A DNA stretch of 17,940 nt from Abditibacteriaceae bacterium (lineage in GTDB: Bacteria > Armatimonadota > Abditibacteriia > Abditibacteriales > Abditibacteriaceae), in contig JANPJS010000184.1 of NCBI GenBank assembly GCA_031425655.1, positions 1 to 17,940 of the forward strand. The letters are read 5' to 3'. The position numbers were made by a program, and so were the translations under genes. The notes beneath the pieces are model-generated. The model saw only the letters and a program-made list of their open reading frames with translations. It made no database searches and had not been told where the DNA came from. Shown in pieces: positions 5,269 through 17,940 of the stretch (position 1 is its first letter; every line of letters starts with the position of its first letter).

Positions 5269-5458
5269 TTTTTAACGGGAAGGCGGTAAGAACGGGAAGG
5301 CGAGAAGAGATTTGAGTGTTTTGGACGGGCAGGCATCCCATTCTCGGTTGGGTTTGCGCTTAGATATTGTGTTCGGTCTAGGTTCAAGCCGCATTTGCGC
5401 CTCGTCAACTCTTTCAAGACTTCCCGTCTTCTCGTTCTTTCCGTCCTCCCGTTAAAAA
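5269..5458. repeat. ~190-bp element with imperfect 39-bp terminal inverted repeats (MITE/REP-like)
   Basis: 5269-5307 versus the reverse complement of 5420-5458 shows 6 mismatches, 5 of them A/G transitions. The arms have an internal ~9-nt periodicity (CGGGAAGG/CGAGAAGA). Confidence 0.8.
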
Positions 5459-7673: not shown

Positions 7674-7819
7674 CCGGGGCAATAAATGCTCCGGCAGACT
7701 CAAAAGTGGCCTCACGGCCACCGGAAAAACCACAAATTCAGGCAACTTCGCCGTCAAGTTTAAGCTCTGATACGGTCGCGAGACCGTTTTTTGAGCTGCC
7801 GGGGCATTTATTGCCCCGG
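7674..7819. repeat. REPIN-like element: two inverted REP-like palindromes, each with an adjacent inner hairpin
   Basis: ccggggcaataaatgctccggcagactcaaaa (7674-7705) versus the reverse complement of 7789-7819 (ccggggcaataaatgccccggcagctcaaaa). Inner hairpins at 7706-7721 and 7772-7787. Confidence 0.85.
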
Positions 7820-7873
7820 TTAGCAACCTCGCACCGCTGTTTATAGCTCTCCGAGTCGTCTACACGGCTCCCA

Positions 7874-8125
7874 GAGTGCTGGAAATGCCTCTCCGAGTGC
7901 TGGAAATGCCTCTCCGAGTGCTGGAAATGCCTCTCCGAGTGCCGGAAATGGCTCGCCAAGTGCTGGAAATGCCTCTCCGAGTGCTGGAAATGCCTCTCCG
8001 AGTGCCGGAAATGCCTCTCCGAGTGCCGGAAATGCCTCTCCGAGTGCCGGAAATGCCTCTCCGAGTGCTGAAAATGCCTATCCGAGTGCTGAAAATGCCT
8101 CTCCGAGTGCCCACAATGGCTCTCT
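7874..8125. repeat. 21-bp tandem repeat, 11 full units plus 1 degenerate (consensus GAGTGCYGGAAATGCCTCTCC)
   Basis: Units start at 7874, 7895, 7916, 7937, 7958, 7979, 8000, 8021, 8042, 8063, 8084 and 8105, with no spacers. Confidence 0.97.
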
Positions 8126-8181
8126 GGGTCGTTATTACGACAAGGCAAGCCTTGTCGCTACGAGGGCGGGGCGCGTTTTAC

Positions 8182-10682: not shown

Positions 10683-10690
10683 AAAAACAA

Positions 10691-10764
10691 AAAGTTTTGA
10701 GTTTTACGTTTTGAGTTTTAAGTTGTACTCAACTCAAAACTCAAAACTTAAAACTCAAAACTTT
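10691..10764. repeat. Inverted array of heptamer repeats (GTTTTGA)n ... (TCAAAAC)n
   Basis: Left arm 10691-10725 pairs with right arm 10730-10764. Same family as 13073-13143. Confidence 0.9.
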
Positions 10765-12522: not shown

Positions 12523-12593
12523 CGAGTGACGAATGACGAGTGACGAGTGCGGAGTGAAAACTACTCGTCATTCGTCACTCGTCACTCGTCACT
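12523..12593. repeat. Inverted array of heptamer repeats (GAGTGAC)n ... (GTCACTC)n
   Basis: cgagtgacgaatgacgagtgacgagt ... actcgtcattcgtcactcgtcactcgtcact fills the gap between the HEAT gene and smpB. Confidence 0.9.
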
Positions 12594-12597
12594 TTAA

Positions 12598-13074
12598 ATG
12601 TCTGACAAAAAGCCAAAATTAGGTGACGAAACCGTCGCGGTCAACCGGCGCGGGCGTTTTAACTACGAAATCGAGGACTCGGTCGAAGCCGGCTTGGTGC
12701 TGACAGGCACGGAAGTCAAAAGCCTGCGACAAGGTCAGGCGCAAATCGCCGAAGCGTATGCGTCCATCGAAAAAGGCCCGCAAAACCGGCCCGAAGTCTG
12801 GCTGGTCGGGATGCACGTTCCGCACTACGAGCAAGGCAATTCGTTCAACGTCGAGCCGCGCCGCAAACGCAAATTGCTGCTGCGCCGCGAGCAAATCGAG
12901 CGATTGCAAAGCCGCGTGCAGCAAAAAGGCTATACGTTGGTGCCGCTCAAGCTTTATTTCACGCGCGGACGCGCCAAACTCGAACTCGGCGTCGGCAAAG
13001 GCCGCAAATCGCACGACAAACGCGAAGCCATCACCGCCAGAGAAATCAAACGCGACCTGCGGCGCGAGTTATAA
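12598..13074 (+). CDS. smpB: SsrA-binding protein
   Basis: [44 protein letters not shown] and [11 protein letters not shown] motifs. Confidence 0.97.
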
Positions 13075-13143
13075 GTTTTGAATTTTAAGTTTTGAGTTGG
13101 ACAATCCGTTAACTCAAAACTCAAAACTCAAAACTCAAAACTT
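13073..13143. repeat. Inverted heptamer array (GTTTTGA)n ... (CTCAAAA)n, second copy
   Basis: aagttttgaattttaagttttgagtt ... aactcaaaactcaaaactcaaaactcaaaactt fills the gap between smpB and the DUF58 gene. Confidence 0.9.
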
Positions 13144-13145
13144 TT

Positions 13146-14597
13146 ATGATTACTTCGCGCGCTTATCTGGTGGGCGTGATGGGGTTTTGTTTTTACCTCA
13201 TTCTGCTTTTCAACACGAATCTGCCCAGCCAGTTTTACGTGCTGTCGTGGCTGTCGGTGGGCGTTTTGGTTTCGTCGCTCGGCGTGGCATTGTTGACGCT
13301 GCTCGGTCTCGAATGCGAGTGGCACATTGCGAAATCGCACGTCGCCGAGGACGTGGAAAAAGCCGATGATGTCGGCGGCGGGCCAACTCTGCAATTCAAA
13401 TTCGCCAACAGCGGCTCGTTCAATAAAACCGATTTGCTGATCGAAGCGCAACTGCTCGCGCCGCGCCGCGATGAAATTATCACGCGCCAATTTCTCATTG
13501 AGGCGCTGCCTTCGCTGTCCAGTTTAATCTGCGAATTGCCATTGACCGATTTGCCGCGCGGACGCTATCGCTTGCAAAGCCTGACGATTCACGGCGGCGA
13601 CGTGTTGGGTTTGTATCGTGTGCGCCGCAAGCTGTCTTTGGCCGGACGCACCGATTTGCAAGATTTGATCGTCGAGCCGGCAGCGGCAGCGTTGCCGCTC
13701 GAAGGCGGCAGCGGAAACACGCACGGCGCGGCGGCGCGGGCGGCGCGCGGACAGGGACACGGCGATGATTTTCGCGGCACGCGGCTTTATGTGCCCGGCG
13801 ACGATTTGCGGACTGTGCATTGGAAATCTACCGCCCGTTTGGGACAGCTCGTGGTCAGGGAATTTCATCACCGCGAACAAGTTCAGCGCCTCATCATCTG
13901 GGACGGCGGCGAAAGCCCGCTCGAAGCGACCGAATTATCGCTGCGGTTGACGATGTCGCTCTGCCGCGCTTTAGCCGAGCGTGGACGCGCGTGCGGCCTT
14001 TTGCGTTTGGATGCGCATCCGCTTTATTTGCCGGCGGCGCGCGGACAAAACGGGGGCAGCCTCAGTCTGGTTGGCGAAGCGTTGGCTGACGCTGACGCTT
14101 CGCGCGAAAGCGAATTAGATGCGGCGTGCGGCGTGTTTTTACGGCATTTGAACGGTGCCGGCGAAGTGATTTTAGTGACGACACAAGCCGGAGATGATGT
14201 GCTGCGCGCCGCGATTTTGCTGCGCTCACACGGCGCGCAGGTGACAATAGCGATGGTTAATGCCGCGTTGGTCGGCGGCGAAGCATCGCTTCCCGCCGAA
14301 CGCGCCGTCGAAGCGTTTTCGCCGATAAAATACGCCTTCAGTGGACGCCGCGAACGCCGTCATTTGGCGCGAGATCGCACTACGCGCCGCACGAAAAGTG
14401 CAGTTCCGACGGATTACGCAGCGCAAGCCCAAGTCTTGCGCCATGCCGGCTTTACGGTCGCGCTGACTCCGAGCGAAGCGCCCGGCGAATGGTCGGGCGC
14501 CACGCAGATGGCGCTCTTACGCGCCGCTGTGCGCGAAGTTGTCGAGCCGCAGCGTCGAACGAGTTCACAGCCGACGAAAAGTGTTAGTCTGCGCTGA
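13146..14597 (+). CDS. DUF58 domain membrane protein
   Basis: Two N-terminal TM helices, RGRYRL...GDVLGL, and the DUF58 core GDDFRGTRLYVPGDDLRTVHWKSTARLGQLVVREF. Confidence 0.9.
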   Translation: MITSRAYLVGVMGFCFYLILLFNTNLPSQFYVLSWLSVGVLVSSLGVALLTLLGLECEWHIAKSHVAEDVEKADDVGGGPTLQFKFANSGSFNKTDLLIEAQLLAPRRDEIITRQFLIEALPSLSSLICELPLTDLPRGRYRLQSLTIHGGDVLGLYRVRRKLSLAGRTDLQDLIVEPAAAALPLEGGSGNTHGAAARAARGQGHGDDFRGTRLYVPGDDLRTVHWKSTARLGQLVVREFHHREQVQRLIIWDGGESPLEATELSLRLTMSLCRALAERGRACGLLRLDAHPLYLPAARGQNGGSLSLVGEALADADASRESELDAACGVFLRHLNGAGEVILVTTQAGDDVLRAAILLRSHGAQVTIAMVNAALVGGEASLPAERAVEAFSPIKYAFSGRRERRHLARDRTTRRTKSAVPTDYAAQAQVLRHAGFTVALTPSEAPGEWSGATQMALLRAAVREVVEPQRRTSSQPTKSVSLR

Positions 14598-14880
14598 CAC
14601 CTTGAGCCGGGAATGGCAACTTTTCAATTATGTCGTTCGCCCGACTTTGAAAAACCCGGCAGGGAGGCCTGCGGCCCAGCGTCCTCAGGACGCATGAGAG
14701 TCTGTAAAGAAAGAGATAGCCAGAAACAGGGCGGATGTCATTCTGAGGGAGCCTTGGCGACTGAAGAATCCCCTTTTGTTTGAGAAAAATCAAGTTTTAG
14801 AGAGCGGACGGCTTCACCAAAATCTAATCGTGGTGGCGCGTTATCAATATACCAACGCTTTGCATTAGGCCCGAAATACT

Positions 14881-15195
14881 TTAAACCCATAATTTCCCCA
14901 TCTCCTTAACTAAATCCCAACACCCGCACTCAACTACTGATACCGCTACTTCTTCGTCTCTTACCTTCCAATTAGTGTAGGAGCTACAGCTACGTATACC
15001 GCCAGCCATTTGCTTTATTAACTTCTCTTTATCTTCATCATTTAATGAAGTATTGGTTAGCTCACAAGCTTTGTTATACATTAAGTTAGCCCACTCTAAT
15101 GCTTTAAATTCTTGAACTGTTTCGTCTATAATCTCGATTTCATCAATCATGTAATCAACGATTCTTTCCACTACTTCTTCTTCTCTTTTGCTCAT
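14881..15195 (-). CDS. Orphan acidic 104-aa protein (MSKREEEVVERIVDYMIDEIEII...CGCWDLVKEMGKLWV), probably leaderless
   Basis: C-terminal part of track ORF 14881..15684, taken from the ATG at 15195. About 37% GC by hand count (116/315) with A/T-ending codons. TATAAT lies 6 nt before the ATG. Confidence 0.75.
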   Translation of the reverse strand: MSKREEEVVERIVDYMIDEIEIIDETVQEFKALEWANLMYNKACELTNTSLNDEDKEKLIKQMAGGIRSCSSYTNWKVRDEEVAVSVVECGCWDLVKEMGKLWV

Positions 15196-15201
15196 ACCTA
15201 T

Positions 15202-15230
15202 ATTATATAAAACAATGGGGGATTCTTCAG
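15202..15230 (-). promoter_or_regulatory. Putative promoter for the cassette ORF
   Basis: Minus strand CTGAAG (weak -35, inside the inner repeat) - 17 bp - perfect TATAAT (15207-15202) - ATAGGT - ATG. Confidence 0.6.
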
Positions 15231-15354
15231 TCGCCAAGGCTCCCTCAGAATGACAAAACTTCACTTTTTGCCTGTGATTCTTTTTTTTTACACACGAGGA
15301 CGCTGGGCCGTAGGCCTCCCTGCCGTGGGGTTTTAACCCCCGGAACCTTCTTTT

Positions 15355-17733
15355 ATGGCAGTCGCTCCTCCCGTTCGCATTGATGTGCGCCGCCGCCCCG
15401 CTCCGCTGCGCGGCGAGGTGTGGATTCGCTACGGCGCCGCCTACTTGTCCACCCTCATCGCCATTGCTGCAGAATCTTCGGCGCCGGGCATGAAAAGCTC
15501 GTTCATCTGGTCGCTGGTCGTGATGGCGACGCTTGGCCTGCCGGTTTCTCTTGCCTTGCGCTTTTCGGGACTGCGCATCGGCAAATACCAAATTCCCCGC
15601 CTTGCCATCGGCACATTCTGGAGCGCGCTGGCCACGCTCGGCATCCTGTTTTTGGTCGTAGACCCGTTGCAACAGCGCGTCCACACCACGATTTTATCGC
15701 CGGATTTCGCGGCGGCGTTTTTCAATCGCCACGACGCCGATGAGGCGATTTCCATCATTTTGCAGGTGTTTTCGATTATCATGGTGTGTCGCAGCTTCGC
15801 CATCATTTTCGACAAAGATACGGTGCTTTCCACAGTGCCGGCTTTTTGCGTTTTAGTGCTGCTGATTGTGGTCGAGCGGAGTGCGGGCGTGGTGTTTTGC
15901 TTCGTGTTATGGGCGGCGATGGCCGCTGTGCTTTTTGCGCTCGATCATCGTCAGGAAACCAGCCGGAGAGTTTCCGTAGTCGTGCCGGCCTTCGTGCCGG
16001 GACAAAACGCCGTGCTTTCGGCGCGCACTTTGGGCGGTTTGATGGCGTTTTCGCTGTTGTGCGCGGCGGTTTTGTCTTACTTCGTGACCAGCCGCATCGA
16101 AAACCGTTCCAGCGCCGAAGGCTGGATTTCCGCGCTCGCCGGTAAACTGACGCAATTTACTTCCGCGCTGCCGGATGTATCCGTGAACGCCGGGCCGGAG
16201 CGCCAGATTGACTTCACCAGCGGCCCGTCTCTGCCGACGCGCTCGACGCTTTGGGTCATTTCCGCCAGAGACCTGAAAACCGGCGCCGTGCTGCAGCCCA
16301 ATTACTGGCGCTTGTTCACCTTAGCCCGTTACACCGGCACCGGTTGGTCGCAGGCGGGCAATAAAGCCGCGAGGATTTCCCCGGAAGTGGTAGGCGATGT
16401 CGGCTTGCGCGGCTTTTTGCCTCGCCCTCCGCTTTCGGGCTTCGTGAGAGAAAGTGTGAAGCGCCGCAAAGGCTACGACGTAGAACGTCATCTGGCTTTC
16501 GGGGCGCCGAAAGGCATCGCTTTTGGTGCGACGACCCGGCGTGTGCGCCTCAAAGTGATCTCAAGGCGCCAGAATCTCGGCTATCTGCCGCATTTGCCCT
16601 CGCCGCTTTATGTGGACGTTCCAAGCGTTCGTTCCGACTTCCGCTCTGATGCGATTTCTGCCTTTCCCGACCGCAGCATAGATGTGCATTTTGTCGAAGC
16701 CGGACAGGTCATCAATATCGTCAGCGCGGTGCCGCCGACCGACGATTACGGCATCGGGGCGGCTCAGCCGCCACTGCGCCGCAGCGAGCGTCCTAATCCC
16801 GCAGCGCGCCTTTCTCCCGAAGAACGGCGCCTTTATTTGCAGTTGCCCGCAGGATTAAACCGAGTGCGCGCCTTAGCCAATAAAGTGACACGAGAAACGC
16901 CCGAAGACGCCGGCGATTTCGTGCGCGCCCGCCGCCTTGCCGAGATTGTAGAAAAAAGCGCGACTTACACCCTGACTCCGCCGCGCTTGCCGCCGGGACG
17001 TGATGCCACTGAGTTCTTTCTATTTGAAGGCCGTCGCGGTTATTGCACCTATTTCGCGGGCGCTTTGGCCGTCGCGTGCCGCAGTGCCGGCATCCCGGCG
17101 CGCGTGGTCAGCGGCTTCACTGCCGGAGAACTGCATCGCAACGGCAGTTTTGAGGTGCGCGAAGCTAACGCTCACGCTTGGACGGAAGTTTGGGTGCCAA
17201 ACTGGGGCTGGGCGACCTTAGATGCCACGCCCGCCGCAGATCGCGGCGACAACGCCGCCGATTGGTGGACAACTTGGGCCGAAAAGCTCACGCGCTTCTT
17301 CGATGCGAGCGTGGCTTGGCTTTCGGGCCATCGCACGCATTTGGCGCTGCTGGGCTTGGCGGTTGTTGTCGGAGGCTTGTCGCTGCTGCGCGAAAAAGCG
17401 CTGCTTCCGGCGCGCCGTCTGACTTCGCTGCGCTTGCGCCGTCGCGTTTCGGATACCGCCGCGCGGGCGCAAATTGACGAAGTTTACGAGCGCGCGGCGC
17501 ACTCTCTGGAAAAACGCTTTCGTGCGCGCCCGTCGTGGGAAACGCCGCACGAATGGCTGGGTGCGGCCCAATCGGCGCTGCAACTGCAAAACCCGGCGCC
17601 GCTGCGCCGCCTGACCGATTTATTCATTCAAGCGCGCTATTCGCCGCGCCCGTTGGGCGCCGAAGAAACCGAAGAAGCGTGGCGAACGCTCGGCGAAGTG
17701 CGCTGGGACAAAGCCAAAAACTCTACCAAATGA
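15355..17733 (+). CDS. Polytopic membrane transglutaminase-like protein (TgpA-like; DUF3488 + transglutaminase core + DUF4129-like C-terminus)
   Basis: Multiple N-terminal TM helices, YWR...Y.G.GW, triad motifs RGYCTYFA / AHAWTEV / LDATP, a C-terminal TM, and ETPHEW...LTDLFIQARYS. Confidence 0.92.
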   Translation: MAVAPPVRIDVRRRPAPLRGEVWIRYGAAYLSTLIAIAAESSAPGMKSSFIWSLVVMATLGLPVSLALRFSGLRIGKYQIPRLAIGTFWSALATLGILFLVVDPLQQRVHTTILSPDFAAAFFNRHDADEAISIILQVFSIIMVCRSFAIIFDKDTVLSTVPAFCVLVLLIVVERSAGVVFCFVLWAAMAAVLFALDHRQETSRRVSVVVPAFVPGQNAVLSARTLGGLMAFSLLCAAVLSYFVTSRIENRSSAEGWISALAGKLTQFTSALPDVSVNAGPERQIDFTSGPSLPTRSTLWVISARDLKTGAVLQPNYWRLFTLARYTGTGWSQAGNKAARISPEVVGDVGLRGFLPRPPLSGFVRESVKRRKGYDVERHLAFGAPKGIAFGATTRRVRLKVISRRQNLGYLPHLPSPLYVDVPSVRSDFRSDAISAFPDRSIDVHFVEAGQVINIVSAVPPTDDYGIGAAQPPLRRSERPNPAARLSPEERRLYLQLPAGLNRVRALANKVTRETPEDAGDFVRARRLAEIVEKSATYTLTPPRLPPGRDATEFFLFEGRRGYCTYFAGALAVACRSAGIPARVVSGFTAGELHRNGSFEVREANAHAWTEVWVPNWGWATLDATPAADRGDNAADWWTTWAEKLTRFFDASVAWLSGHRTHLALLGLAVVVGGLSLLREKALLPARRLTSLRLRRRVSDTAARAQIDEVYERAAHSLEKRFRARPSWETPHEWLGAAQSALQLQNPAPLRRLTDLFIQARYSPRPLGAEETEEAWRTLGEVRWDKAKNSTK

Positions 17734-17839: not shown

Positions 17840-17940
17840 CCCTCACCCAACCTCCCCCGGAGGGGGAGGAGCCGCGTTTTCTCAAGGATTTTTGCCCTGA
17901 AGAGCGCACTCCTCCCCCTCCGGGGGAGGTTGGGTGGGGG
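17840..17940. repeat. Pair of inverted 32-bp C/G-run palindromic repeats (REP doublet), reaching the window edge
   Basis: ccctcacccaacctcccccggagggggaggag (17840-17871) versus the reverse complement of 17909-17940, with one mismatch. Each arm has its own hairpin cctccccc-gga-gggggagg. Confidence 0.9.

Follow-up and report, generated by a model that had tools for sequence, protein, structure and literature searches.

Among the closest described counterparts of the locus reported here is the Ssn/SRM system, where, in the text available from PMC11893778, the cut made by SsnA in single-stranded DNA falls a few bases 5' of the tag, the arm–gene–arm layout is likened by the authors to an insertion sequence, and mobility of the SRM unit is not demonstrated. 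DNA inserted between dimer partners has been described as hiding some REP dimers (PMC3733652), and the REPIN spacers treated in the accessible parts of PMC3337134 and PMC3733652 are short hairpins devoid of genes. Prokaryotic MITEs, as covered in PMC10969869, form nested clusters, insert into one another, flank cargo and can supply promoters. A literature search returned no report of SRM doublets with non-nuclease genes, the supplementary tables of SRM-flanked genes in PMC11893778 lying outside its scope.

The window analysed is a 17,940-nt stretch of an Abditibacteriaceae genome (assembly GCA_031425655.1, contig JANPJS010000184.1; hereafter G000, 97% complete in 327 contigs), in which inverted repeats enclose one small AT-rich reading frame between a DUF58 gene and a transglutaminase-like gene. 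The first-pass annotation proposed that this block is a repeat-bounded slot capturing and expressing interchangeable small foreign genes; its description of a cargo-loaded REP doublet without a recombinase of its own stands. Since no second loaded copy was found, the locus is not evidence of a new gene-cassette system, and the block likely records a single capture event by selfish repeats of kinds already known.

Nested repeat layers at the DUF58–transglutaminase junction

The gap between the two neighbouring genes measures 757 bp in the window, compared with 28, 36 and 41 bp in the three congeners, all of which present the expected empty site at this junction; the block was likewise not seen at 26 other DUF58 loci, for several of which only a short stretch after the stop codon was covered. 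From the short gap in the congeners and the lack of a block at the other loci, the ~750-bp block reads as a lineage-specific insertion. Misassembly is unlikely, because contigs of run X1, which is possibly the source sample and hence not independent, cover the flanks and the cargo at 11–13x and the 38-nt arm at 24.5x with zero differences. A joint between 14668 and 15296 in the same run was considered as an empty allele and rejected: no more than 40 of 46 letters agree in that contig, whose loose ends belong to the paralogous C92 doublet. The 721-nt block folds with a z of -11.9 relative to 20 shuffles. Feature positions are collected in Table 1.

Table 1. Features of the block and of its flanking genes, in window coordinates.
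Feature	Position	Strand	Basis
DUF58 protein gene, 483 aa, left neighbour (host)	13146..14597	+	Pfam PF01882, E 2.8e-13; orthologues of 61–64% identity in 3 congeners
Layer 1 left arm, REP/TIR-like palindromic arm; family flanks Y1 (IS200-like) transposase genes in a relative	14639..14693	+	Alignment and profile scan; empty doublets C54, C92, C119; Y1 arms L161, L165
Layer 2 left end (GAGAGTCTGTAAAGA), likely derived by decay from the MITE-like terminus AGAAxCAGTCTGAAAAGT	14696..14710	+	Aligns with end of G003 empty doublet; strict pattern not matched
Layer 3 left arm, 38-bp CGTC-type (TGTC-tagged) REP, SRM-like	14736..14773	+	Member of 192-copy family found beside small GIY-YIG genes
50-codon frame overlapping the ORF stop and running into the left arm; unsupported as a gene	14738..14890	-	No PHROGs or NCBIfam match
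Remainder of the doublet's original spacer, 13/22 identical to right-end leader	14774..14795	+	Aligns with first 18 nt of G003 empty spacer; shuffle p = 0.013
Cargo ORF P0001, 104 aa, 37% GC, orphan; weak V4R/ATC-hydrolase/DUF6125-like lead	14881..15195	-	ORF call; homologue and profile searches
TATAAT, predicted leaderless -10 box in spacer-derived leader, 6 nt upstream of ATG	15202..15207	-	Sequence; -10-like hexamers peak near this spacing across the host genome
Layer 3 right arm, identical to left arm (38/38)	15218..15255	-	Sequence alignment
Layer 2 right end (GTGTGTAAAA), which has likely been clipped and has decayed further than the left	15286..15295	-	Alignment with G003 ends
Layer 1 right arm, without the inner GCGTCC half-hairpin of empty doublets	15296..15343	-	Alignment and profile scan
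Transglutaminase-like protein gene with DUF4129, 792 aa, right neighbour (host)	15355..17733	+	Pfam PF01841, E 2.1e-24; PF13559, E 3.3e-10

Other repeats were observed at comparable positions. In a genome of the same order another tagged hairpin pair lies at the junction after the DUF58 stop codon (L034), and at L014 a 200-bp palindromic stretch occupies the junction after a DUF58 gene, which suggests that this junction may be a repeated landing site. The window itself holds at least six more hairpin-repeat families at gene junctions (1–114, 5269–5458, 7674–7819, 10690–10764, 12523–12593, 13067–13145 and 17840–17940), several of which match arms enclosing small genes elsewhere in G000. A tandem array of 21-nt units lies at 7794–8171 between genes resembling pth and rplY, and the 318 bp between two arms at the congener locus L140 are made up of similar units.

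The ends of the block had been taken for an undescribed composite terminus; they are better described, from alignment and copy distribution, as three nested layers of separate repeat families, each of which also occurs independently. For the outermost layer, the reported 30-bp repeat holds at 29/30 positions (14657–14686 against 15296–15325), but the true arms are longer, so that the element begins left of 14651 and ends right of 15334. Doublets of these arms without a gene are found in G000 (C54, C92, C119) and at six loci of relatives, and in the relative G005 arms of the same family flank Y1 transposase genes, both as doublets (L161) and as single inward arms (L165), an arrangement of like arms around a Y1 HUH transposase gene that characterises REPINs and TIRtrons. 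A profile of the outer arms, which contained the G005 copies, matched 3 of 35 Y1 loci, one of them weakly, and none of 46 controls. The outer arms were found at none of the six Y1 loci of G000, where (in an assembly of the completeness given above) the nearest proteins are 44–45% identical and lie within other repeats, and no GTAG tag is visible at the outer-arm ends. The Y1 genes between layer 1-family arms in G005 (L165, 1304–2012, and L161) are in themselves candidate units of the TIRtron/REPtron type in this bacterial family.

That no clear short target duplication is present proved to be only partly right. Although a 7-nt direct repeat, AGGACGC (14687–14693 and 15297–15303), bounds the middle layer and may be a target duplication, outer doublets that are empty already contain this word twice; with the adjacent right end clipped as well, a deletion would be the simpler reading. 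The middle layer itself is likely a decayed MITE-like end. Its parent motif, AGAAxCAGTCTGAAAAGT, is present in 52 copies in G000 as against one in a shuffled genome, brackets the inner hairpin family (~30 nt outside the arm) and one unrelated hairpin family, and forms seven pairs of 150–418 bp, none with an ORF; it may resemble the ends of DDE transposons.

The innermost arms are identical as reported (38/38), and with their inward extension the repeat runs to 53 nt at 91%. This exact variant occurs only twice in G000, within a family (GTCATTCTGAG...GAAGAATC) of 192 arms and 67 inverted pairs, 63 of which have spacers below 75 nt; of the 67, the pair in the window is the most widely spaced and the only one to contain an ORF. 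With its TGTC tag, palindromic core, many intergenic copies and inverted dimers, the family shows the features of CGTC-tagged REP dimers (tag CGTC or TGTC), and the inner arm by itself folds weakly (z 0.5). In a 401-genome sample of the phylum the inner-arm variant is confined to this genus (G000, G002 and G003), and the exact 34-mer was found at nine loci of the genome collection, mostly from Planctomycetota, where it forms short-spacer doublets or single arms; at L036 a small GIY-YIG gene lies next to it. The same doublet stands empty in G003 (L045/L191; L039 has the same sequence and was counted once): its arms are identical, the flanks on either side are similar, and its spacer measures 25 nt, of which the first 18 can be aligned with the left spacer remnant of the window. 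The perfect arms had been read as a sign of recent activity; identical arms in 36 of the 67 doublets, the occurrence of the same 34-mer in distant genomes and the decayed ends of the middle layer leave that reading unsupported.

Inner-family arms are associated with small nucleases. GTCATT-type arms lie within ~0.6–0.8 kb of 12 of 13 small GIY-YIG genes found through Pfam and at none of 46 control loci; when L036, which was found via the repeat, is included, the count becomes 13 of 14 (15 short-frame loci, 14 of them scored, with long UvrC-like frames and one 244-aa frame left out). The repeat-linked nucleases match PF01541, have a single domain and are 43–56% identical to each other via L095. 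The linkage of tagged hairpins to small single-domain GIY-YIG genes that defines SRM/Ssn is found for the inner arms as well. G000 encodes one small GIY-YIG gene behind a doublet (L001) and one fragment. Together with the Y1 genes accompanying the outer arms in G005, these nucleases, in trans at L001 and in relatives, bear out the expectation that an enzyme gene would be tied to the same repeats. Neither the window nor any of the 14 scored GIY-YIG loci contains a match to the degenerate search motif published for SRMs; as this motif fails at all of these nuclease loci, it misses this branch, and the arm is filed as SRM-like rather than as canonical SRM. Small GIY-YIG genes adjoining GTCATT...GAAGAATC arms were observed at L088–L097, L115 and L001, and since the published motif misses such arms (0/14), published SRM counts likely understate the system.

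Origin of the loaded inner doublet

The reported TATAAT–6 nt–ATG arrangement is present (15207–15202), and its spacing accords with a host-wide peak: upstream of the ATG of long ORFs in G000, -10-like hexamers number 41, 83 and 41 at 6, 7 and 8 nt, 10–12 at 3–5 nt and 24–37 at 9–13 nt. A consensus scan found no -35 partner for the TATAAT, and transcription of the cargo is predicted to be driven by this -10 box and to yield a leaderless mRNA. The 22-nt leader carrying the box is identical to the left spacer remnant at 13 of 22 positions (shuffle p = 0.013), and the cargo ATG lies 25 nt behind the arm, the nuclease genes of L189 and L036 starting 23 and 22 nt behind theirs; the geometry of a slot, in which the cargo begins where the nuclease gene begins in nuclease-bearing copies, is thereby upheld. 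As an observation on the host, the genome-wide peak of -10-like hexamers 6–8 nt before start codons points to a regular use of leaderless mRNAs in this organism.

The preferred reading, held at a probability of roughly 0.6, is that three non-autonomous doublets are nested at a junction that usually measures 30–40 bp, and that the innermost, an Ssn-type REP doublet, captured ~400 bp of AT-rich foreign DNA once. As neither a donor of the cargo nor a close relative carrying the nested doublets minus the cargo was found, we infer the order of events: a Y1-type doublet would have settled first at the junction, a MITE-bracketed Ssn-type doublet would then have inserted into the centre of the Y1-type doublet, the right junction being clipped, and foreign DNA would have entered the innermost spacer once, probably via repair of a break at the long hairpin, either before or after the arrival of the doublet at the junction. 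The spacer-derived leader is the likely source of the -10 box, which either evolved there or was retained from it. The present mover, if there is any, would be the host Ssn-like GIY-YIG nuclease (L001) acting in trans; because SsnA cuts 5' of the tag, which here would mean the outer edges of layer 3, such a nuclease could in principle release arm, cargo and arm as a unit, but cutting at these edges would not explain the inner junctions. Several points count against a one-off capture: the 25-nt ATG spacing is near the 22–23 nt of the nuclease genes, and random insertion need not give such a spacing; the homology of the leader to the left spacer is apparent at 13 of 22 positions; neither a donor nor a cargo-free close relative came to light; assemblies break at these repeats, so that loaded pairs may have been missed; and the arm departs from the published SRM motif.

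The kept leader and start position would also fit a replacement, in which layer 3 was once an autonomous arm–ssnA–arm unit that lost its nuclease gene in exchange for a foreign segment of about the same length. An Ssn-like gene does follow a near-identical arm variant after 23 nt in G002 (L046/L189), and after 22 nt in L036; the orphan, at 104 aa, is near nuclease size (~95–100 aa), and other arm–gene–arm units in G000 carry cognate genes. This account is nonetheless rather unlikely: the cargo bears no GIY-YIG trace (P0001 scores 0 bits on a profile of 14 nucleases and has no match to PF01541 in Pfam), so that the locus, its product being no nuclease, is not an autonomous NTS–ssnA–NTS unit; most nuclease genes of the family are flanked by whole doublets rather than by single inward arms; and the left spacer remnant and both flanks match the empty doublet.

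Leader homology and the 25-nt start position are also the best support for a dedicated expression slot, in which Ssn-type doublets would routinely capture and express interchangeable small foreign genes from a leaderless promoter supplied by the element. The geometry of the locus would suit this, being equal to that of the nuclease-gene slot, with a promoter in the spacer-derived leader, a leaderless spacing that accords with the host and an ORF that is unlikely by chance, but interchangeable cargos failed to appear. A gene is present in only one of the 67 inner-family pairs of G000; of the 192 arms, 156 are paired over a distance of at most 240 nt, 30 sit at the ends of contigs and six are lone, and among these six only the window's is followed by a low-GC ORF. 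Short-read assemblies break at the common arm variants, as at these 30 contig ends, so loaded pairs may be under-counted, and the searches as a whole are bounded by their exact-match patterns and by assembly breaks at repeats. Three congeners hold 46 further inverted pairs (27 in G003, 5 in G002 and 14 in G001, counted from the positions of all matches in these genomes, with five other genomes of the family left out), none of them with a gene; 45 are short, and the sole long one (318 bp, L140) has other repeats inside. None of the nine genome-collection loci with the exact 34-mer has a foreign gene enclosed by arms, the eight metagenome matches to the arm–TATAAT–ATG pattern comprise two empty doublets and six unrelated sequences, and viral contigs and plasmids gave no match. 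Routine capture by a dedicated slot is held to be very unlikely. The wider proposition, that Ssn-type doublets are gene-capture vehicles whose nuclease slot, mobilised in trans by a GIY-YIG single-strand nuclease, can accept unrelated genes and provide a leaderless promoter for them, is very unlikely too; if it held, non-autonomous cargo cassettes would have a small GIY-YIG nuclease as their mobiliser.

A broader screen of G000 for inverted repeats 180–1500 bp apart gave 140 matches, 13 with a spacer below 46% GC, and four of these 13 contain an ORF: the pair in the window, a stretch on C124, and two in other hairpin families, which, judged from sequence, we take to be cognate genes of those families. 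The C124 stretch (G000:C124:26670–27380, L204) has 43% GC, lies between copies of a different hairpin family and carries an ORF of 134 aa with the first half of an attC at its end; it is read as a piece of an integron cassette that landed in a hairpin repeat, an AT-rich ORF between hairpins from which it follows that hairpins now and then take up stray DNA. An integron integrase is encoded in G000. The likeness of the window's block to an integron cassette did not hold up, as the block is without an attC: neither the strict pattern RYYYAAC..GTTRRRY nor a profile of the attC-like sites of G000 itself, which matched the C124 stretch that forms part of it, has a match in the block. A relaxed 49-nt attC candidate was set aside, the surrounding stretch folding no better than shuffles.

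The cargo reading frame

A low-GC ORF does lie between the repeat ends as reported, running on the minus strand from 15195 to 14881 (104 aa, GC 0.37 against 0.60–0.61 for the DUF58 and transglutaminase genes), and an ATG-started frame of at least 104 codons arose in 31 of 5000 shuffles of the spacer (0.6%). Upstream extensions to 118 aa (P0002) and 267 aa were rejected, as they read through the repeats, as was a frameshifted continuation into the 50-codon frame, which scores 7.9 bits against 11.1 for the ORF alone.

Homologue searches returned one of three similar-length candidates, which is P0001 itself, and none among 127 longer candidates, 200 other genomes of the phylum or 17 viral candidates; of 1.84 billion representatives searched none was accepted, and a repeat-protein match at E 4e-4 was dismissed as compositional. 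Nothing significant was found in Pfam, PHROGs or NCBIfam, no match in Pfam to ATC_hydrolase, DUF6125 or V4R at E<=1, and none in Rfam. The single-sequence fold has a pLDDT of 48.6, and a Foldseek search with it returned nothing. In the Atlas P0001 has a recognition of 2478, and its placement puts an unnamed cluster of 105 aa on top (0.94), with neighbouring clusters of ATC_hydrolase, DUF6125, MetOD1 and V4R at 0.83–0.91, mostly longer than P0001 (the named ones 110–135 aa). On a local 17-member ATC/DUF6125-like profile P0001 scores 11.1 bits, through the motif V.V.EC..W.L.KEMG, above all of 200 shuffles (best 8.0); the hhalign probability to this profile is 2%, and the profile alignment stops short of the C-terminal part of the family. 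As a lead only, P0001 may be a small ligand-binding fold, possibly shortened.

The longer Atlas neighbours, the truncated profile alignment, the lack of a homologue in any search and the low pLDDT would all suit a dead fragment that yields no useful protein, whether it is what remains of the 5' portion of some longer gene of V4R/ATC-hydrolase-like type or stray AT-rich DNA. Against this stand a frame uninterrupted from its ATG to its stop codon, the placing of the -10 box at the spacing preferred by the host, the 0.6% chance of such an ORF and the Atlas recognition with its top cluster of 105 aa, which leave this reading only a slim chance.

Under the preferred reading of a single capture, the locus is one case of REP doublets tied to different enzyme families lying one inside another, able to trap a foreign gene and probably to express it, and the trapping of DNA in REP doublets becomes a plausible minor route of orphan genes into operon junctions. 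The analysis also extends Ssn-linked repeats to a sequence branch missed by the published motif, and the unique arm variant with its traceable cargo offers a convenient substrate for testing SRM mobility.

Comparison with known systems

Integron gene cassettes resemble the block in carrying one small, AT-rich and almost leaderless ORF, and G000 has an integron integrase; the block differs in lacking attC and attI, in having a -10 box of its own and in boundaries that are inverted rather than direct. Layer 2 resembles the short terminal inverted repeat of a non-autonomous element, as in the MITEs of PMC10969869 (to the extent of the text available), but its ends are decayed and the AGGACGC duplication is ambiguous as a target duplication.

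With the REPIN/RAYT and TIRtron/TIRYT systems, in so far as they are set out in the accessible parts of PMC3337134 and PMC3733652, layer 1 shares the inverted doublet, the arms around Y1 HUH genes in a relative (L161, L165) and the occurrence of gene-less doublets, whereas it has no GTAG tag and no cognate transposase among the six Y1 loci of G000. The CGTC-tagged REP dimers of the available portion of PMC3733652 are matched by layer 3 in its TGTC tag variant, head-to-head dimers and intergenic position; the inner doublet differs in a 444-bp spacer with a complete ORF and a predicted promoter, nested in two more layers.

The Ssn/SRM system (GIY-YIG cd10448; PMC11893778, in the text available) is alike in its TGTC/CGTC-tagged hairpin arms, in their genome-wide copies, in the arm–gene–arm layout and in the linkage to small single-domain GIY-YIG genes, seen here at 12 of 13 loci. 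The locus is set apart from that description in two ways: the enclosed gene is no GIY-YIG nuclease, and the arm has a long bulged centre and lies off the published SRM motif, as do the arms at the 14 GIY-YIG loci. The processes that would have built the locus under a single capture have precedents in the available texts, the nesting of repeats being already described in PMC10969869 and insertion between dimer partners in PMC3733652.
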